Sequence record: OQ067374.1 | DNA: 64,000 nt | Direction: 5' to 3' (one strand) | Source of the DNA: Escherichia phage a20 | Part shown: one piece after another, positions 14,915 to 62,527 of the stretch | Layout: each line of letters begins with the position of its first letter | Numbering within the stretch: the stretch's first letter is position 1 | Notes under the pieces: generated by a model | What the model was told of the DNA's origin: nothing | Databases searched by the model: none | The model's input: the letters and a program-made list of their open reading frames with translations, nothing else | Program-made: the position numbers and the translations under genes

Positions 14915-14947
14915 CCGAAATCTAAAGCAAAAAGGGCCGAAGCCCTT
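14915..14947 (-). terminator. UUCG-loop hairpin terminator upstream of gene 39 (overlaps stop of preceding gene)
   Basis: aagggc-cgaa-gccctt with A-run on plus strand. Confidence 0.6.
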
Positions 14948-15368
14948 ATTTAAATTTAATTTTCTGAAGTGCATCAATTGCAGCCAAACGCCCTTGTTCA
15001 CTTTTAACTGTAATGACCACATCGCCTGATACGATCACCGAACCATCAACAAATTCTATAGAGCCTTTTTTGAAATCGACAGCTGTATCTGGTTCCGGAA
15101 CTTCTTCAAAGAATTTAAATTCTGCACCATAAAGCAGAATATCACCTTGCATACTAATGATTGTACGTCCAGGTCCATCGGTTTCAGCGGCAATCATTGA
15201 AACACCATAACCAATCATCTCTTCTACAATAAAATCTCTTGATAATAAAACTGTATGCAGAGTAGTGTTAAGACGTTTACCAGTCGTATTAAGAATTCTC
15301 AAGAAATTATCTTCCTGTCCTTTGATAATACGATATTTCTTACCAACTTCAAAACCTTTAAAAGCCAT
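14946..15368 (-). CDS. hypothetical protein (goF/39.x position)
   Basis: ORF track, 140 aa; ...MIGYGVSMIAAETDGPGRTIISMQGDILLYGAEFK... Confidence 0.5.
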   Translation of the reverse strand: MAFKGFEVGKKYRIIKGQEDNFLRILNTTGKRLNTTLHTVLLSRDFIVEEMIGYGVSMIAAETDGPGRTIISMQGDILLYGAEFKFFEEVPEPDTAVDFKKGSIEFVDGSVIVSGDVVITVKSEQGRLAAIDALQKIKFK

Positions 15369-15370
15369 AA

Positions 15371-15550
15371 TTAACCCTTCTTAAGTAAGTCGTAAAAACC
15401 ACCGTTCACATGTTTAGGAGCAGAAACCCGACGAGTAGACAGACGATGACATTCAGGGCAAACATCGTTTTCTCGTTCAGAAATTCTTTTAATTTTTTCA
15501 TATTCATGACCACAATCTTCAGATTGACATTTATAGTCGTATAACGGCAT
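15371..15550 (-). CDS. small zinc-ribbon protein (59 aa)
   Basis: Hand-translated [37 protein letters not shown]...; C-x4-C ... C-x2-C; TAATG overlap with upstream gene; fits exactly between neighbours. Confidence 0.5.
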   Translation of the reverse strand: MPLYDYKCQSEDCGHEYEKIKRISERENDVCPECHRLSTRRVSAPKHVNGGFYDLLKKG

Positions 15551-15981
15551 TATTGTTCCTTAAAGTGAGCTTTCAACATTTGATACAAAGACCATGCCTG
15601 GTCATTATTTTCGATAGTAATAGTCATCACAGGAAATTCAGACAATTCATCAAGTTCACCAGAATCTTGCTCTTCGGACGCTTGATACGGATTTCCAACT
15701 TCGTCAAAGAACTCTGCTTCATTCGTGGAGAGCCAGATAAAGTTTTCATCAAGGATATCACCGCCTGTTGCGTATCCAACCGTGCCAGTAGATGTCACAA
15801 TTTTAGTAGGACGACCAAGATGGTCAACATCTAATACTTTAAATGGTTCCATGCCAAGACGTCGTGCATAAATCCCATTATCAGTGTGGTCTTTAATAAA
15901 CTCTTCTTGGGCACGTTTATCTTTAAATTGGTACCATGAGTTAACGCGGAATTTATTAGCCATTAGTAAGTTTCCTTCCAA
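15550..15981 (-). CDS. hypothetical protein
   Basis: ORF track, 143 aa. Confidence 0.55.
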
Positions 15982-16190
15982 TAAGTTGTACCGTTTTCAG
16001 TGATTTCACGGAAGATACCATAGATAGGCATTTCATCGCCGAGTTTTTCGTAAACGTAAACCACTTCAGTGTAGCATAAAAATTCGGTCCAGTTTTTCTG
16101 TACAACAACTAAATCAGGATTAAACAGAACATCTTCAAACTCATCGATGTTTGAATCAGTAGTTACGTTTTTAATGATTTGACGTTTCAT
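15963..16190 (-). CDS. hypothetical small protein; start moved to internal ATG with SD AGAGGAG because the longer ORF start lies inside the promoter
   Basis: ORF track 15963..16235 trimmed to MKRQIIKNV... (75 aa). Confidence 0.5.
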
Positions 16191-16216
16191 AATATTCTCC
16201 TCTTGTTTTGATAGGT

Positions 16217-16249
16217 CTATAGTATCATAGACCATAGTTGTTGTACATC
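16217..16249 (-). promoter_or_regulatory. early promoter (-35 TGTACA, 17 nt, -10 TACTAT) with -10 embedded in inverted repeat ggtctat...atagacc
   Basis: Plus text gataggtctATAGTAtcatagaccatagttgtTGTACA. Confidence 0.55.
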
Positions 16250-16772
16250 ATTTTAGCAAAATAAAATCAACTTGTTCTGCCAATGAACGTCTAAACATTA
16301 ATTGACAACTTCCGAGGATGAAATCAGGTGCTTCATAGACCGCGATGTAGTATCCTTTAGCTTTCAAGAGTTCAACATCCACCTGGTCATCAAACCATGC
16401 ATAAACCGCGTCAACACTTTCAAATCCAAAATAGAACCCTTGAGCCCAATCTTCACTCAATTCAAATGTGTGCTCAATTCTATAGTATCTTAAGATATTT
16501 TGTTCAAGGAGTTTGTCTTCATTTACTGTAGGACGATTAGGGACATTATAGTTGTCGCCGTGATGGTAGAAGTTACCTGAGAGTATTCCATGCTTATCAA
16601 GGAACTCCCATGTTTCTTCAGAGTTGTCGGTGCCCGACCAACCGTATGGCGAACGAGGTTCTTTATTCCAAGAGGTTTCCCAAATTCTGACGGCTTTACC
16701 GTCTTCGATAGCAATTCCCGGTAATGATTCACGTTGAGTACAAAAACTACGTTCTACGCGGTAAACTAACAT
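16248..16772 (-). CDS. hypothetical protein
   Basis: ORF track, 174 aa; strong SD GAGGAG. Confidence 0.55.
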   Translation of the reverse strand: MLVYRVERSFCTQRESLPGIAIEDGKAVRIWETSWNKEPRSPYGWSGTDNSEETWEFLDKHGILSGNFYHHGDNYNVPNRPTVNEDKLLEQNILRYYRIEHTFELSEDWAQGFYFGFESVDAVYAWFDDQVDVELLKAKGYYIAVYEAPDFILGSCQLMFRRSLAEQVDFILLK

Positions 16773-16796
16773 ATTATTCTCCTCTGGTTGATATGG

Positions 16797-16829
16797 TTAT
16801 AATACCAAAACCAGAGGAGAAGTAAACAA
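16797..16829 (-). promoter_or_regulatory. early promoter (-35 GTTTAC, 17 nt, -10 TATTAT) lying in the loop of an 11-bp perfect inverted repeat that includes the SD of the downstream gene
   Basis: ctcctctggtt gatatggttATAATAcca aaccagaggag aaGTAAAC. Confidence 0.55.
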
Positions 16830-16831
16830 CT

Positions 16832-17251
16832 TTATGCGAAAGCAGCTGGGCTATATTTTTTAATTTGGAATTCAGGAACTACCATGAACTGTCCAGCGAA
16901 AACGATGTTATAAAGCTTAACACCATCTTCTACCCAACGGTCGCTAATAAATCCGGCGATTTGCTTAGTTTTCCACGGTGTTCCATCAGTTGCCGCAGCA
17001 ATAGTGAATTCATGGTCTTTTTCAACAGAAACTGATCTGCATAGTCCCCATTTGAACGCTTTTTCTTCTGGTTCAATGAATTGGCTTTTAACGTAACCAA
17101 TGTTACCATCAGCGTCACGAACTTTAACTTCATTACGTCCAAAAACCGGATCGCTCACAGAAAGAACTTCAACCAACTTCCCGGCAACTTTAGAGCGAGA
17201 AGCAACAGATACATATACGTAATCACCTGTAGAGAGATTTACAATATTCAT
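16832..17251 (-). CDS. paralog A of a three-member tandem family (MotB-position)
   Basis: 139 aa; shares VSVASRSKVAGKLVEV, KAFKWGLC and GFISDRWVEDGVKLYNIVFAGQF with next gene. Confidence 0.6.
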   Translation of the reverse strand: MNIVNLSTGDYVYVSVASRSKVAGKLVEVLSVSDPVFGRNEVKVRDADGNIGYVKSQFIEPEEKAFKWGLCRSVSVEKDHEFTIAAATDGTPWKTKQIAGFISDRWVEDGVKLYNIVFAGQFMVVPEFQIKKYSPAAFA

Positions 17252-17260
17252 AATAATTCC

Positions 17261-17734
17261 TTAAGCTTTACGAGGAGACACATAGCGAGTGATTTCAGAT
17301 TCTTTAACAACTCGGAAGTCACCTAAGAATACGATATTGTATAACTTTTCACCATCTTCAACCCATTGGTCACTAATGAAGCCACACATAGTATCAGTTT
17401 TGCTTGGATAACCGTATTCGTCGATGAAATCAAATTCTTTATCAGTCTGGAATTCAACACCTTTACACAAGGCCCATTTGAACTGTACATTAGGCTCTGT
17501 GGATTCAACTTTTTCTCTTGAAGCAAGAGCACCACTCACAGGAGTTTCCAAAAATTTAGGACTTACGTAAGCGTACTGAGTTTCAGTTTTTCCAGAACTA
17601 GGAATGATTCGAACTTTAACTTCTTTAACACGACCAGTACCATTAGTACGAAGTCCTACCACTTCAACTAGACGACCTGCAGCTTTAGAACGAGATGCAG
17701 ACGATACACGCTTAATTTCACCAATAGTAATCAT
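17261..17734 (-). CDS. paralog B of tandem family (MotB-position)
   Basis: 157 aa; VSSASRSKAAGRLVEV...FKWALC...GFISDQWVEDGEKLYNIVFLGDF. Confidence 0.6.
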   Translation of the reverse strand: MITIGEIKRVSSASRSKAAGRLVEVVGLRTNGTGRVKEVKVRIIPSSGKTETQYAYVSPKFLETPVSGALASREKVESTEPNVQFKWALCKGVEFQTDKEFDFIDEYGYPSKTDTMCGFISDQWVEDGEKLYNIVFLGDFRVVKESEITRYVSPRKA

Positions 17735-17761
17735 AATTTCTCTCTTTGTTTAAATTGAATT

Positions 17762-17792
17762 CACTATACTCCATCCATCCTTGGATGTACAA
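17762..17792 (-). promoter_or_regulatory. early promoter (-35 TGTACA, 17 nt, -10 TATAGT)
   Basis: Plus text tcACTATActccatccatccttggaTGTACAac. Confidence 0.6.
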
Positions 17793-17794
17793 CA

Positions 17795-18289
17795 TTAATT
17801 AAGGATATTAACCACAGCACTACGTGGAACTACACTAAAATCACCTGCATGAACAACGTTCAGAAGTTCAACACCATTTTCAATCCATTGGTCAGTTACC
17901 CATCCATTTACTGGACCGGCGAACGGTCGACGAATTGAAACATATTTACACAACAAATCAGTAGGCTCAATAGGCTTAATCAGAGTACCGTACATACAAG
18001 CGATATCCATATCAATACAGATGTCTTTAACGGGTTCTACTTCTTCAATCAACAGTTCAAAGTCGGTGCTTGGAAGGGCGGTAGTAGAAATTGTACCGTA
18101 TGAATTTTTAATTTCTAAGAATAACCAAGGGCCTTCAGCTTGTTTGATAAAGTTAACAATAGTGAAACTATTACCTTGAGTGGCACCTAAAATTTCACAA
18201 AACTTTTCATAAGCTCGCACTGAAGCACCGTACCAGTTGATTTGTTTTTCGTCTTTCAGGATGTAAGTAGCCGTAGTATTGATATTCAT
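17795..18289 (-). CDS. paralog C of tandem family (shares C-terminal module only)
   Basis: 164 aa; ...GWVTDQWIENGVELLNVVHAGDFSVVPRS. Confidence 0.55.
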   Translation of the reverse strand: MNINTTATYILKDEKQINWYGASVRAYEKFCEILGATQGNSFTIVNFIKQAEGPWLFLEIKNSYGTISTTALPSTDFELLIEEVEPVKDICIDMDIACMYGTLIKPIEPTDLLCKYVSIRRPFAGPVNGWVTDQWIENGVELLNVVHAGDFSVVPRSAVVNILN

Positions 18290-18318
18290 AATGTTTTTCC
18301 TGTTTGGTTAAGATAGAA

Positions 18319-18351
18319 AGATTATACTCCAACCATCCTTGGTTGTAAACT
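18319..18351 (-). promoter_or_regulatory. early promoter; 30-mer attatactccaaccatccttggttgtaaac repeated near-identically at ~60483 and ~61503
   Basis: Plus text gATTATActccaaccatccttggttGTAAAC. Confidence 0.6.
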
Positions 18352-18355
18352 GGTT

Positions 18356-19033
18356 TTATCGCTGTTTTACACTTAACGGGTCAGGATTCTCAGGGACATC
18401 TTCAAGGCCAAGCGCATAACGCTGAGCATATTTTAACATCAAAATATCTTTAGCACAATCATGAATACTATCATGGGCAACGAATCCTTTTAGCGTACCC
18501 ATCGGTAATGGACACATACTTAATCCTCGTGTCAAAGAGTAAGCTTCGATTGCCGTACGAATATCACGTTGAGCCCAGAATTTAACAGGTTCTAATTTAT
18601 CAGTATCAATATCTGGTTCAAGAACACCTTCATCACGATAGAGGTCACGAATCAAATCGACCAAGATCGGGAAGTCAAAGCTCATACCACGGCACCACAT
18701 CTGTGATTTCCATTGGTCAACTTTATTAGCTCGGCAATAGTCTAAAAAGATTTTAATGCCTTCAAGCGTAGTGACATCGTCTTCAGACGGAGCCAAGTTT
18801 TTACGCGCTTCAACCGATTGTTCTTTCCACCATTTCATAGTTGATTTAGCGAAAACTCGCTTCCCTTTCTGAGAAGCTAAATTAAATTTAATTCGCTTAC
18901 CTCGTTGAACAAGTTCTTCAAATGATTCAACAACTTCAGGGTCGGAATTATATGCAATAACCGCAAGGTCAATAACAGCCGCTTTTGATGTATTGCCGAA
19001 TGTTTCAAAGTCTATAATAACATCAGTGCTCAT
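18356..19033 (-). CDS. dexA: exonuclease A (DEDDh 3'-5' exonuclease)
   Basis: 225 aa; VIIDFETFG (Exo I motif) and ...HDSIHDCAKD; T4 DexA 227 aa; synteny next to dda. Confidence 0.85.
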   Translation of the reverse strand: MSTDVIIDFETFGNTSKAAVIDLAVIAYNSDPEVVESFEELVQRGKRIKFNLASQKGKRVFAKSTMKWWKEQSVEARKNLAPSEDDVTTLEGIKIFLDYCRANKVDQWKSQMWCRGMSFDFPILVDLIRDLYRDEGVLEPDIDTDKLEPVKFWAQRDIRTAIEAYSLTRGLSMCPLPMGTLKGFVAHDSIHDCAKDILMLKYAQRYALGLEDVPENPDPLSVKQR

Positions 19034-19042
19034 AATTTTCTC

Positions 19043-20356
19043 TCAAATAAAATGGACGTCAAAACGACCACGAGTCGTGCCGACATACAATAACTGTTTA
19101 GCTAATTCTGAATCAGCATAATGGATACACGGTGTATAAACAAAGGCCGTGTCAACAGACATACCCTGGGCCTTATGGAAGGTTGATACTGGTAGTGCCT
19201 TCACCTTAGTGAACATACGTTTAGCATCCCAGAATTCGCTCCATGGAGCTTTACCACCTTTATTCCAGAATTTGTATGTTTCTGCAGTCTTAGCCAAAAA
19301 CAAATTGAATTTATAAAGCTCTTCTTCAGAAGAAATAACCTTTATATCTTCGCGGATATATTCTTCATCATCCCCATATGTTTCTACTGTAAGATTCCAG
19401 TATCGTATCATATATTCGCCTGAAACACCACGTGCTTTAACGAATGTAGACGTTTCTACAGCATCTCGAATACGAACGAATTGCCCGTTATTGAAAAGCA
19501 TTTCGGTCATATTTTTACCATCTAGCTTATATGTCTTAGTAAATGGCTCTTGTAGAACAATGACTTCGTCTTTAATAAATGGTTTTTCTGTTTCAAGAAG
19601 TTTTCGGCGAATAATTGAATTTAACTTGTCCACCGACTTATTTGTGAATGCCATCATTCGATTTTCGAAAAGGTCTTCAGGAGTTTTAACGACGTTAAAA
19701 TAGTTCATCATATACGATTTAAGGTCTGTATATCCATGAACACCGTGTCCATCAACTACTTTATCGTAAATCCATTTGCCATTACGAATATCAGTCGCAA
19801 CATCAATAATTGGTGCATTGCTACGTTTAACTTCTGTAAGGTTGCATTGCACGAAGTCTTTGTGAGTGAAGAAAGGACTTAGATACGCAGTTGATTCGCC
19901 TGGGTCTACCGGACGAATCTGGCATCGGTCGCCGATTCCAATTACTGTACACCATTTAGGGATACTAGCTAACATTATTTTAAACAGAGAACGGTCACAC
20001 ATTGACGCTTCATCAAATAACAGTACACGGCACAAGGCTAAGTCGGGAACCTTTTTCTGTTCAAACAATACGTTTTCTTCGTATGTAGTTGGGTTGATTT
20101 TAAGAATGCTATGAATAGTCGATGCTTCTTGACCTGCAAGTTTGCTTAGAACCTTTTTAGCAGCATGTGTAGGGGCTGCTAAAATAATACCTGATTCTCC
20201 AGAAGAAATAAGGGCTTCAACGATGAATCTAGTAAGGGTTGTTTTACCTGTACCAGCAGGCCCATTAATAGTTACGTGATGTTTCTTTTCTTTAATAGCG
20301 TTCATAACAACGTTGAAGGCGTTTTTCTGGCCTTCAGTCAAATCATCAAATGTCAT
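19043..20356 (-). CDS. dda: Dda DNA helicase (SF1B)
   Basis: 437 aa; Walker A GPAGTGKTT, ...LLFDEASM (Walker B); T4 Dda 439 aa. Confidence 0.9.
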   Translation of the reverse strand: MTFDDLTEGQKNAFNVVMNAIKEKKHHVTINGPAGTGKTTLTRFIVEALISSGESGIILAAPTHAAKKVLSKLAGQEASTIHSILKINPTTYEENVLFEQKKVPDLALCRVLLFDEASMCDRSLFKIMLASIPKWCTVIGIGDRCQIRPVDPGESTAYLSPFFTHKDFVQCNLTEVKRSNAPIIDVATDIRNGKWIYDKVVDGHGVHGYTDLKSYMMNYFNVVKTPEDLFENRMMAFTNKSVDKLNSIIRRKLLETEKPFIKDEVIVLQEPFTKTYKLDGKNMTEMLFNNGQFVRIRDAVETSTFVKARGVSGEYMIRYWNLTVETYGDDEEYIREDIKVISSEEELYKFNLFLAKTAETYKFWNKGGKAPWSEFWDAKRMFTKVKALPVSTFHKAQGMSVDTAFVYTPCIHYADSELAKQLLYVGTTRGRFDVHFI

Positions 20357-59199: not shown

Positions 59200-59504
59200 T
59201 ATAATGTTCTCTCAAATTTGTGGAAGCATTTACGGCATTTCAATTTCAAGTTATCAGTGGTCCAGTTAACCAGTTGGACTTGGATAGTTCCACATTCTGG
59301 GCATGGATGTTTTGCTGCCGATTTGGCAGCATTTTCACGTCGTTCAACCATTTTCATGATTTCGTTCCATGCCGGAGGAACGAACTCTTCTTCACCGTGG
59401 ATTTTATCTCGCTGAACAAATTCAATCTTTGAACTATCATCAATAAACTTAACCAAGTCATGATTAGTGCTCATATCAATATCCTCTAAAAGACGTAGTT
59501 TCAT
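59199..59504 (-). CDS. zinc-ribbon protein
   Basis: 101 aa; CPECG...CRKC. Confidence 0.5.
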   Translation of the reverse strand: MKLRLLEDIDMSTNHDLVKFIDDSSKIEFVQRDKIHGEEEFVPPAWNEIMKMVERRENAAKSAAKHPCPECGTIQVQLVNWTTDNLKLKCRKCFHKFERTL

Positions 59505-60454
59505 TATAAAACCTCAATGGCATTTCGTAAACCATCCGCTTTCGCATTCAGAGCTTTTAACGATTTAGTTTGTTCTGCAATCTGGGCTTCGACTTCTTTC
59601 AGACGAGATTTGAGATATTCGCGTTCTTCTCTTAAGTTATCAACTTTTTCTGCTTTAGGCTCTTTAATAGGCTTAGGTTTATACGTATTAGGGTTCTTCA
59701 GTTTAATTTGAATTCGAGAACTGAATAACATTGAACCGTTATCTTCGGTTTCACTGTGTATTTCTACCACGTCCATGATTCTTAACATCATGCGAAGTTT
59801 ATAAGACAGCGAACGAACGGTTTTATTGTGCTTCTTAATTTCTTCAGCTTTCATGGTGCCGAGATTACGTGAGTAGTAATAAGGAACCTGAATATCAATT
59901 GATAATGATGCGGTACCATTACCGGTTGGTTTGAACACTGCAGTAACCCAATCTTTAGCATGAACTGTATTTGTACGATCATCGCCGCCTGTGAATAATT
60001 TACGAGAATGTTTAAAAAGCATATTCACTTGGTTATTGAATTCACAAGCAAATTTATCAGCAAATTTAGTTTCAGGAATGGTAGTTAACCAATCAGCCAA
60101 ATGAGTCTTTTTAACATCATTAACAATAGTGAATTCAACCAAATCGGTTTTAGATGTCACAGATTTAATAAAGCTCGGCTTCATAAAGTTTTTAATGTTA
60201 TCGCGAGCTACAGTAGAAGATAATAAACGAGAACGTTTGAACCATTGAAGCAACGTCCCTAACGAATGAGAATACGCATTTTGAGTATCTTTACAGATAT
60301 GATTTTCTTGGCCTATGTATGTACCAAAATCGCGAAGAATACCACTTACTACATCTCGGTGTGGAACATCAAATCCTAGTGCACCAGAAGCACGTTGGGC
60401 ATGAACGTTAGCGATAAGACCTGCAAAGTATTCAATGTAATGTGAACGTGTCAT
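59504..60454 (-). CDS. hypothetical protein with C-terminal coiled-coil (member 1 of three adjacent ~320-aa proteins)
   Basis: 316 aa; C-terminus ...EEREYLKSRLKEVEAQIAEQTKSLKALNAKADGLRNAIEVL. Confidence 0.55.
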   Translation of the reverse strand: MTRSHYIEYFAGLIANVHAQRASGALGFDVPHRDVVSGILRDFGTYIGQENHICKDTQNAYSHSLGTLLQWFKRSRLLSSTVARDNIKNFMKPSFIKSVTSKTDLVEFTIVNDVKKTHLADWLTTIPETKFADKFACEFNNQVNMLFKHSRKLFTGGDDRTNTVHAKDWVTAVFKPTGNGTASLSIDIQVPYYYSRNLGTMKAEEIKKHNKTVRSLSYKLRMMLRIMDVVEIHSETEDNGSMLFSSRIQIKLKNPNTYKPKPIKEPKAEKVDNLREEREYLKSRLKEVEAQIAEQTKSLKALNAKADGLRNAIEVL

Positions 60455-60480
60455 AATATTTTCCTCTCGTTAAGATAGAT

Positions 60481-60513
60481 TCATTATACTCCAACCATCC
60501 TTGGTTGTAAACT
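60481..60513 (-). promoter_or_regulatory. early promoter; near-identical copy of the 18319 promoter 30-mer
   Basis: Plus text tcATTATActccaaccatccttggttGTAAAC. Confidence 0.6.
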
Positions 60514-60516
60514 ATT

Positions 60517-61476
60517 TTATGATTTTAACGCATTCATTGCGTTAAAAAGTTTAGAATACTGCAACTGGAGATTCGTTACAACACTTTGAGCATCACGAAG
60601 CTTAGCTTGTGCTTTGTCAAGTTCAACAGACAGTTGGTCCATAGTGGCCTTGATTTGATTGTAACGGTAATCTTCGGCCGGAAGAAGGTCATTAGAAACA
60701 TTTAGTTTTACTGCAGACAGTTTGCACACATTTGGCAAACCTTTAAACATTGATTTACCCGAAGTAGAATAAGCACTTAGGACTTCGGCCTGTTCAATTG
60801 GGGTCCCAGTAAGCGATGCTTCAAACAATGCATTTTCCTTTTTAAGATTTTGATAATATTCGGAGTCTTTGTGCCACCATGGCGCAGGAACCTTTTTACC
60901 AATAGATACACGAGCCTGGATAGCGATATGGCCCTTATTCTTGATAGGGTCGATAATATTAAGCTCACGAGAATAAATTGCTTTAATCTGGTGGATATTA
61001 TCACCTAAAACTTCCAACGCTTGGTGGAATACACGAGCAACGTTATCATTCTTAGGTTTATACGTAAGAGTGAACTCGTTCTCACTGATAACCATGATTT
61101 CTAACTTATCGTAAGTATATTTCAAATGTTTCATGTTAATTGCTTGAGGACGAATACGAGAAGCAATGGCCATCAGATTGTTAAGGTTATTCCGGAACTG
61201 CTTAGCGAAATATTGTCCTTCACCACCAATACAAAAATTACGAAGTTTCTGTTTGGCTAATAAACGGCTGAACTCACCATTTTTAATGAACTCTTTAACG
61301 GGTGTGTTAGTAACGCATTCAAATTGAGTAAACTTACGAGAAGTAATCCCATAATATGAACAGATTTCCTCAATCTCTTCAGGAGTCTTTACAGGCATAC
61401 GGATAGGATTAGGTCCTGGAGTATATGCGTTCGAGGTAAATTCTTTGATAAGTTCTCTACGTGTAATAAAAGCCAT
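60517..61476 (-). CDS. hypothetical protein with C-terminal coiled-coil (member 2)
   Basis: 319 aa; C-terminus ...MDQLSVELDKAQAKLRDAQSVVTNLQLQYSKLFNAMNALKS. Confidence 0.55.
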   Translation of the reverse strand: MAFITRRELIKEFTSNAYTPGPNPIRMPVKTPEEIEEICSYYGITSRKFTQFECVTNTPVKEFIKNGEFSRLLAKQKLRNFCIGGEGQYFAKQFRNNLNNLMAIASRIRPQAINMKHLKYTYDKLEIMVISENEFTLTYKPKNDNVARVFHQALEVLGDNIHQIKAIYSRELNIIDPIKNKGHIAIQARVSIGKKVPAPWWHKDSEYYQNLKKENALFEASLTGTPIEQAEVLSAYSTSGKSMFKGLPNVCKLSAVKLNVSNDLLPAEDYRYNQIKATMDQLSVELDKAQAKLRDAQSVVTNLQLQYSKLFNAMNALKS

Positions 61477-61500
61477 TTTATATTCCTCATGTTGAAAAAT

Positions 61501-61533
61501 TTATTATACTCCAACCATCCTTGGTTGTACATC
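61501..61533 (-). promoter_or_regulatory. early promoter; third copy of the repeated promoter (one substitution in -35: TGTACA)
   Basis: Plus text ttATTATActccaaccatccttggttGTACAtc. Confidence 0.6.
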
Positions 61534-62527
61534 ATTCCTTAAGAAGTTTTACTACTTGAATAAGATTAGCTCGTTCTGTTTTATTTTTACCGTTTAAGCC
61601 TGCTAATCGTGAGATTTCATCGTCAGTCTGTTGAATAGTTACATTAAGTTCGTTAATCAAAGCTTCAAAGTATTTGATTTGCTCAGCATGTTTTGATTCA
61701 AATTTCTGAACCGGAATAACGTCTTGATTCAGTTCATCAATAAGGTCTTTAAGAGCATCTTCTTGGTTGATATCATATTCAACTTCTTTTATTTCTTCAA
61801 CGAGCTCGTCTTTATATCTAACGTCTTTTAGTCCTGGAGCTGGTCCTAAAATCTCTTCTTTAAGAGTACAAACATATCCAATACGATATCCAGTGCCGTC
61901 TCGCTTGATATCAACTTCGTCGATAAATCCACAATGTTTAAGACCAGAGCCGATTAGGTTAAAATATCCTTGACGTCGTCCTTCAAACGTTACACGAACT
62001 ACTAAGACGGTTTTGCCACTGACCTTTTGAAGCTCACATTTATAAAAGTCTGTTGAACCTGAATAACATGGATGAGTTTTAAAGTTCATCTGACGATCTA
62101 GACCCATTTGTAAGCGTGCTGATACGGCCATAAAACGTGTTTGGTTCTCGTTAAGATGAGCAACAATCCATTTCAAAGGCATTTTACACTGTTCACGACC
62201 GAACAAATCAGTACGTCCTAGATTACGCAGGATGTTGTTAGAGTTAATCATCGACAGAACGTTAAGTTTATTCAGCGCGCTGAAGATTCCATCAGCCATT
62301 GATTTTCCGTAACCTTTACACGCTTTAATAAGCGCTCGCGGCAGATTAGTATAGATTTCAGACGGCATATGAAAATCAAATTTACTAGTCAGTAATTGAT
62401 GAACTTGGATAGCAATTTGCTCATAATTAAGTGCTCTGCGATCATTATGGTCTTTAAACCACACTTTAATCTGTGAAGCACATAAACCGTTAATTTCATG
62501 TTTTACCGCATCAGATGTAATGCTCAT
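61532..62527 (-). CDS. hypothetical protein with C-terminal coiled-coil (member 3)
   Basis: 331 aa; C-terminus ...EALINELNVTIQQTDDEISRLAGLNGKNKTERANLIQVVKLLKE. Confidence 0.55.
   Translation of the reverse strand: MSITSDAVKHEINGLCASQIKVWFKDHNDRRALNYEQIAIQVHQLLTSKFDFHMPSEIYTNLPRALIKACKGYGKSMADGIFSALNKLNVLSMINSNNILRNLGRTDLFGREQCKMPLKWIVAHLNENQTRFMAVSARLQMGLDRQMNFKTHPCYSGSTDFYKCELQKVSGKTVLVVRVTFEGRRQGYFNLIGSGLKHCGFIDEVDIKRDGTGYRIGYVCTLKEEILGPAPGLKDVRYKDELVEEIKEVEYDINQEDALKDLIDELNQDVIPVQKFESKHAEQIKYFEALINELNVTIQQTDDEISRLAGLNGKNKTERANLIQVVKLLKE

Follow-up and report, generated by a model that had tools for sequence, protein, structure and literature searches.

Three tandem genes on the minus strand of Escherichia phage a20 (OQ067374.1), called A, B and C within the 64,000-nucleotide (nt) stretch analyzed here (hereafter the window), very probably constitute the Mosigvirus form of the T-even motB/motB.1 early-gene cluster, with the origin, expression and mechanism proposed below. 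Gene B is the motB ortholog by position and sequence, C is a full-length motB.1 ortholog, and A is a second, linker-less motB paralog of the type found in phage RB69 as open reading frame (ORF) ORF010c. The window comes from a T4-type phage of the genus Mosigvirus (RB69-like T-even). Its region 15500-19100 shares 96-98% DNA identity with phages BEU50, mobillu, PhAPEC2 and many others, and Mosigvirus genomes with ~97% DNA identity to the window share its gene order and carry annotations that include 'MotB-like transcriptional regulator (x2)'. The three genes and their domains, with protein lengths in amino acids (aa), are as follows:

17795-18289, minus strand: gene C, 164 aa
18035-18289, minus strand: C, N-terminal domain (residues 1-85)
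17966-18034, minus strand: C, disordered linker with the conserved DMDIACMYGTLIKPI (residues 86-108)
17798-17965, minus strand: C, MotB-type C-terminal domain (residues 109-164)
17261-17734, minus strand: gene B, 157 aa
17549-17734, minus strand: B, KOW-like N-terminal domain (residues 1-62)
17483-17548, minus strand: B, variable disordered linker (residues 63-84)
17264-17482, minus strand: B, C-terminal domain (residues 85-157)
16832-17251, minus strand: gene A, 139 aa
17063-17251, minus strand: A, N-terminal domain (residues 1-63)
16835-17062, minus strand: A, C-terminal domain (residues 64-139)

Much of this was described before. Patterson-West et al. 2021 (PMC7827196) assigned 102 MotB homologs to categories, reported that MotB and MotB.1 have a C-terminal domain in common but different N-terminal domains, proposed that one gene arose from the other by duplication, and noted that RB69 carries two motB genes and one motB.1. 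The paralogy, the duplication and the extra RB69-type copy have therefore been known since 2021, and Pfam and PHROG already label these genes. For the finding itself we add little; the additions here are a quantification of purifying selection, recombination as a source of diversity, movement of the genes as a cassette, an SH3-like/Tudor/KOW fold as against the OB-fold, and a caution about the truncated MotB.1 of the T4 reference.

Paralogy of the three genes

The preliminary description of this locus identified the three ORFs as tandem paralogs in the motB position, and both its coordinates and its quoted motifs proved exact. A and B share 42% identity across 151 columns over their full length (E 1e-30). 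C matches B by BLASTP over the final 36 residues (E 1e-9) and A likewise at the C-terminus (E 6e-10). These pairwise alignments place the similarity far beyond chance. The N-terminal block shared by A and B reads SRSKVAGKLVEV in A and SRSKAAGRLVEV in B, the central block FKWGLC and FKWALC, and the C-terminal block GFISDRWVEDGVKLYNIVF and GFISDQWVEDGEKLYNIVF, with GWVTDQWIENGVELLNVVHAGDF as its counterpart in C. All three proteins exceed the gathering score of the Pfam motB family PF17613 (25 bits), with A at 77.2, B at 142.2 and C at 33.0 bits. B covers profile positions 2-157 of 162, while C matches only positions 78-153, through its residues 84-159. Among PHROGs, A (E 1e-51) and B belong to phrog_1671 ('MotB-like transcriptional regulator'), and C matches phrog_2333 over its full length (E 8e-82, profile positions 42-210 of 210) with a secondary match to phrog_1671.

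A and B both have the two-domain MotB architecture, with SRSK.AG..VEV in the N-terminal domain and FKW plus G(F/Y)I(S/T)DQWVE.G.KLYN in the C-terminal domain. C does not, because its N-terminal domain is unrelated in sequence to that of MotB, and we therefore file it under MotB.1 rather than MotB proper. An hhalign comparison of the MotB and MotB.1 alignments paired B residues 89-151 with C residues 113-162 (probability 98.1%, E 8.5e-14), so the homology spans the whole C-terminal domain, in which the hairpin of C is 11 residues shorter. The earlier statement that C shares only the C-terminal part with A and B thus stands, but not the statement that it keeps just the last block, since the homologous domain includes the 'LCK.V' of the central block. 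A tblastn search of the window with the three C-terminal modules found no copy besides those in A, B and C.

The positions of the genes agree with the sequence assignments, as A, B and C lie downstream of dda in the early region, within the interval from dexA to cef. The order between dexA and cef is motB.1 (C), motB (B), the second motB (A) and a motB.2 homolog. RB69 (NC_004928), of the same genus, has the same order and three paralogs that are 97% (A), 91% (B) and 98% (C) identical to those of the window; its ORF010c, annotated 'similar to T4 MotB', is the counterpart of A.

Genes B and A

B is 48% identical to T4 MotB over its full length (E 4e-48). Like B, T4 MotB (PF17613; phrog_1671) consists of two domains and a disordered linker, and an early promoter lies at the equivalent place before both genes. 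The AlphaFold2 (AF2) model of B (mean predicted local distance difference test score, pLDDT, 80.9) has a four-stranded unit at residues 7-57, disorder at 66-81 and five strands at 92-152. Unlike in T4, the gene is duplicated in the window. The second copy, A, is a member of this family along its entire length, lacks the linker of ~20-40 residues, and is 38-42% identical to either MotB type (38.5% to T4 MotB and 42% to B). Since A is about equidistant from B and T4 MotB, the duplication is old rather than recent. Copies of the A type at least 80% identical to A occurred in 207 of 777 phage records, with none at 60-80% identity, and the other 570 had just more distant MotB proper. A is therefore best described as a discrete lineage.

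B is annotated as 165-186 aa in some relatives (junction 17735-17792; loci L001, L004, L009 and L010), starting from an ATG that overlaps the stop codon of C. We rejected the 172-aa form found in some relatives: its extension translates the promoter, and differences in the length of an (AG)n run that are not multiples of three break the frame. Because the frame of the extension hangs on this variable run, the 157-aa start at 17734 is credible.

Gene C, a full-length motB.1

C is 37% identical to T4 MotB.1 over residues 3-136 (E 3e-26), a similarity that includes the N-terminal domain, and its C-terminal domain is homologous to that of MotB; both features place it in the MotB.1 family. T4 MotB.1 (phrog_2333; 'Category 2' of PMC7827196) is its ortholog, and both genes lie immediately upstream of motB. 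The 164-aa C differs from the T4 protein by a further 21-residue linker motif (DMDIACMYGTLIKPI...) and by having its C-terminal domain complete. The AF2 model of C (mean pLDDT 78.6) contains strands and two helices at residues 8-83, disorder at 86-108 and five strands at 116-163. As modeled, the N-terminus of C is a different, helix-containing domain and not a fast-diverged copy of the KOW-like N-terminus of MotB. Kim et al. 2025 (PMC12152347) obtained LSm-like models for the N-terminal domain of MotB.1 as well as for GoF and Frd.2. Our Foldseek comparison with viral models returned MotB.1, MotB relatives and KOW proteins; among the matches listed none was named GoF or Frd.2, and several had no name.

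The conserved linker motif DMDIACMYGTLIKPI occupies C residues 93-107 (window 17969-18013) and is absent from the 143-aa T4-type MotB.1. In the homologs P0232, P0236 and P0151 it stands directly before a MotB.1-type C-terminal domain and behind a KOW-type N-terminal domain, and in the 180-aa and 250-aa classes it precedes an extra N-terminal domain.

Fold and distribution of the C-terminal domain

The same chains head the match lists of B and C despite their differing N-terminal domains, with a tool that does not report which residues are aligned. From this we infer that the shared C-terminal domain is a five-stranded SH3-like barrel (an SH3/Tudor/KOW assignment based on models), whereas PMC7827196 proposed an OB-fold on the basis of HHpred. 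No solved relative was found when PDB sequences were searched with a profile (best E 0.51, a ribosomal protein). An exhaustive hidden Markov model search with the C-terminal domain profile recovered 29 clusters (50% identity) among 1.84 billion representative proteins. Three long matches among these (MucBP, Ig and Calx-beta repeat proteins) consisted of short repeated stretches, and we regarded them as spurious. By this search, the C-terminal module is confined to T4-like phages.

Selection and recombination

We calculated dN/dS, the ratio of nonsynonymous to synonymous substitution rates, by the NG86 (Nei-Gojobori) method for orthologs from 8-9 Mosigvirus loci. The ratio was 0.149 for A and 0.237 for B, both with dS ~0.30, and 0.127 for C with dS 0.14. 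Nine neighboring small early genes had ratios of 0.03-0.19 and dS of 0.05-0.16. The C-terminal domain was the most constrained (B 0.094, C 0.083, A 0.145), the N-terminal domains had values of 0.16-0.31, and the disordered linker of B had the highest value at 0.53. All three genes and each of their modules are under purifying selection, with no value near 1. The preliminary description had taken the divergent N-termini as typical of host-interaction proteins under diversifying selection, an interpretation that ratios of 0.13-0.24 per gene and 0.08-0.15 for the shared domain do not bear out.

Two alternative accounts of these genes can be weighed. It is very unlikely that the three genes encode host-interaction proteins whose N-termini diverged by positive selection after tandem duplication. 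Such selection would fit the lower amino acid identity of A and B among Mosigvirus genomes (80-99%, versus 97-100% for the neighbors), the indels that accompany the top dN/dS in the B linker, and the different N-terminal domains of the classes. However, the ratio stays well under 1 in all genes and all domains, and the N-terminus of C is another domain rather than a diverged copy in both the AF2 models and PMC12152347. Moreover, the surplus divergence of A and B is mostly synonymous (dS 0.30) and comes in blocks, as the recombination of old alleles predicts. In ESh15, for instance, the N-terminal domain of B is of the T4 type, and the alternative alleles of A are distinguished by two short blocks. 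The excess divergence therefore indicates recombination between diverged alleles. That A is a redundant, decaying duplicate heading for loss, with only B mattering, we consider extremely unlikely. A is missing from T4 and most Tequatrovirus genomes (the 570 of 777 records with more distant MotB only), it is shorter than B and linker-less, and a fusion gene that collapses B and A into one exists (P0036). Against decay, A is an intact 139-aa ORF in 9/9 Mosigvirus loci examined and in two Tequatrovirus loci, ~207 records carry a copy at least 80% identical, and the invariant residues of the family are kept. Its dN/dS of 0.149 is even over both domains, and it has been retained after transfer into another genus.

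That transfer is evident in the Tequatroviruses GiZh and Sf23, whose B and A are 87-90% identical to those of the window while dexA and cef are just 65-68% identical; Sf23 also has a Mosigvirus-type C (96% identical). The side of the block on which motB.2 lies differs between the two genera: it is downstream of A in the window and upstream of motB.1 in T4. The C-B-A block has thus been exchanged as a cassette between Mosigvirus and Tequatrovirus. In GiZh (L006 2508-3920) and Sf23 (L011 2451-3920) the block sits between a T4-type motB.2 and cef that are only 35-65% identical to those of the window. Two metagenomic genes, P0036 and P0093, encode single MotB proteins in which the N-terminal half is of the B or T4 type and the C-terminal half of the A type; they look like products of unequal recombination between tandem copies.

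Under the proposed origin, an old tandem duplication would have given rise to A and B, and a domain swap would separate C from B. The array would later have been reshuffled by homologous recombination and would move between phage genera as a cassette.

Promoters and expression

The preliminary description assigned an early promoter each to C and B. Sigma-70-type sequences occur at both places, although that of B is a degenerate copy:

18321-18350, minus strand: early-type promoter cassette upstream of C, GTTTACAACCAAGGATGGTTGGAGTATAAT (GTTTACA-N17-TATAAT, 11/12 matches to the sigma-70 consensus)
17763-17792, minus strand: degenerate copy of the cassette directly after the C stop codon and upstream of B, TTGTACATCCAAGGATGGATGGAGTATAGT (9/12, three mismatches)

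A promoter at the C/B junction is conserved in all relatives examined, being kept in nine other Mosigvirus and Tequatrovirus loci and in T4, mostly with TATAAT. The 30-nt cassette GTTTACAACCAAGGATGGTTGGAGTATAAT recurs identically at 60483-60512 and nearly so at 61503-61532 (both minus strand), giving four copies in the window where none (0) is expected by chance. A starts 10 nt after the B stop codon behind an AAGGA ribosome-binding site, with no promoter between B and A, and we found no terminator-like site on the minus strand of 16800-18350, hence none that separates A, B and C. From these signals, C and B would be expressed from repeated early-promoter cassettes, and A would share a transcript with B, to which its translation would be coupled.

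This cassette may be PeSL-like. The PeSL (promoter-early stem-loop) cassettes of T4-type phages are likewise repeated at gene boundaries in variable regions (PMC2839356, PMC4122927), as are the four copies in the window, and it is at boundaries of this kind that the motB block varies from one genus to another. PeSLs are composites of terminator and promoter, whereas here we show the repetition of the promoter 30-mer alone, which has only a potential 5-bp stem between the hexamers.

Frameshifts in the T4 and RB69 records of motB.1

The motB.1 gene is interrupted in two reference records. In RB69 (NC_004928 8376-8872; locus L008 5377-5873), two single-T insertions relative to the window split motB.1 into a 132-aa ORF and the 29-aa ORF012. 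The other eight Mosigvirus loci examined (8/8) have one intact gene of 163-165 aa, as does the window. The 29-aa 'peptide' of RB69, listed as a separate category in PMC7827196, is thus the C-terminus of motB.1.

The T4 reference motB.1 (NC_000866.4 7291-7650; locus L003 3792-4151; also AF158101) contains an extra G, reading ATTGGAAGATGG versus ATTGAAGATGG elsewhere. The insertion ends MotB.1 at 119 aa, and the last 28 residues of the C-terminal domain (EDGVELLNVVHAGEYSVVPRSAVVAILN) are intact in the next frame. With a 601-nt query, ten re-sequenced T4 records as well as RB55 and RB59 matched over 600 nt, and two further T4 records over 597 nt. In MT984581 and KJ477684 the extra G is the sole difference; both lack it and encode 143 aa. 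According to the models, the truncation would remove the last three strands of the C-terminal barrel. The expression constructs for MotB.1 in PMC12152347 were synthesized, its recombination templates cite NC_000866.4, and its protein is given as 13.8 kDa. Because this mass fits 119 aa and NC_000866.4 is cited, the constructs appear to encode the truncated protein. The reference MotB.1 is thus truncated unlike that of re-sequenced T4, which weakens the published negative results on MotB.1.

Function

T4 MotB is an abundant early protein that binds modified and unmodified DNA without sequence specificity (PMC6070864, PMC7827196). Expressed on its own it is toxic; it copurifies with H-NS and StpA if DNA is present and brings a 2-fold gain in burst size (PMC6070864). 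It also alters H-NS footprints, and ~75 host genes are upregulated, a third of them in the H-NS regulon (PMC7827196). By homology to T4 MotB, the mechanism would be a tight non-specific binding of double-stranded DNA that remodels host H-NS and StpA on DNA for a modest gain in burst size. We ascribe such DNA-binding and H-NS activity to B with reasonable confidence, by analogy from its 48% identity to T4 MotB, and to A with less. As judged from models and profile comparison, each protein would have two small domains, all-beta or mostly so, with a disordered linker between them (absent from A). A and B would carry a KOW-like N-terminal barrel, and C a different domain, LSm-like in the literature. 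A would be a compact second DNA binder, and in C the shared C-terminal barrel would be linked to another N-terminal domain that binds a different partner.

Several points weigh against this account as a whole. The role of the Mosigvirus copies, the A-type paralog and the full-length MotB.1 is assigned by homology, and the promoter calls are consensus matches only, the copy before B being weak (GTTGTACA...TATAGT). In addition, knockdown of T4 motB barely shifts the phage transcriptome, and the benefit is only 2-fold (PMC6070864). The main target of the proteins might instead be RNA or the machinery of transcription and translation, for example through NusG/Spt5-like KOW contacts with RNA polymerase or the ribosome, or through an LSm-like RNA chaperone activity of C. 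Such a role would fit the KOW- and LSm-like folds, with the MotB.1 N-terminal domain modeled beside GoF and Frd.2 (PMC12152347), and motB was originally named as a 'modifier of transcription'. We nevertheless consider it unlikely, since the binding of T4 MotB to DNA is direct and non-specific, and early and middle transcripts do not change when the protein is knocked down (PMC6070864). An RNA reporter showed no response to T4 MotB.1 (PMC12152347), a weak negative given that the construct appears to lack the end of the C-terminal domain.

A further reading, which we offer as speculative and unlikely, is that the C-terminal barrel is a T-even-restricted, Tudor/SH3-like module by which all three proteins are anchored at a common place, such as DNA or H-NS-DNA filaments. 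Different N-terminal barrels (KOW-like or LSm-like, one or two of them) would be grafted onto it, so that A, B and C bring three activities to one site. The published heterologous T4 MotB.1 constructs, built on the reference error, would lack part of this barrel.

Flanking genes and other features

The genes and sites around the block, all on the minus strand, are:

19043-20356, minus strand: dda
18356-19033, minus strand: dexA, the upstream neighbor of C
16799-16827, minus strand: promoter-like site GTTTACT-N16-TATTAT, upstream of the motB.2 homolog
16777-16821, minus strand: hairpin with a 13-bp stem (-24 kcal/mol, z -4.5, 0/200 shuffles fold as well)
16248-16772, minus strand: motB.2 homolog, 174 aa (34% identity to T4 MotB.2, E 9e-16; phrog_1106)

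The motB.2 homolog is no paralog of A, B or C. Downstream of it follow, in order and on the same strand, cef, goF, zinc-ribbon 39.2, an unnamed ORF and gene 39. The A-B-C block is bounded downstream by the features at 16777-16827. There the hairpin overlaps the promoter-like site, and the 3' arm of this hairpin contains GAGGAG, which is the ribosome-binding site for the motB.2 homolog. Read-through transcripts could mask GAGGAG in this hairpin, while transcripts from the local promoter would lack the 5' arm.

The cassette copies at 60483-60512 and 61503-61532 precede two of three adjacent ORFs of ~320 aa (59504-62527). These three ORFs had no mutual similarity by BLASTP (E >= 0.7) and matched three different PHROGs of unknown function.

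The unnamed 140-aa ORF in the 39.1 position (14946-15368) and GoF (15550-15981) match phrog_622 (E 2e-19 and 2e-39, respectively), and the C-terminus of the former also matches a goF PHROG. These two genes, which lie a few genes beyond the motB block on its downstream side, may form a second paralog pair of the GoF type.

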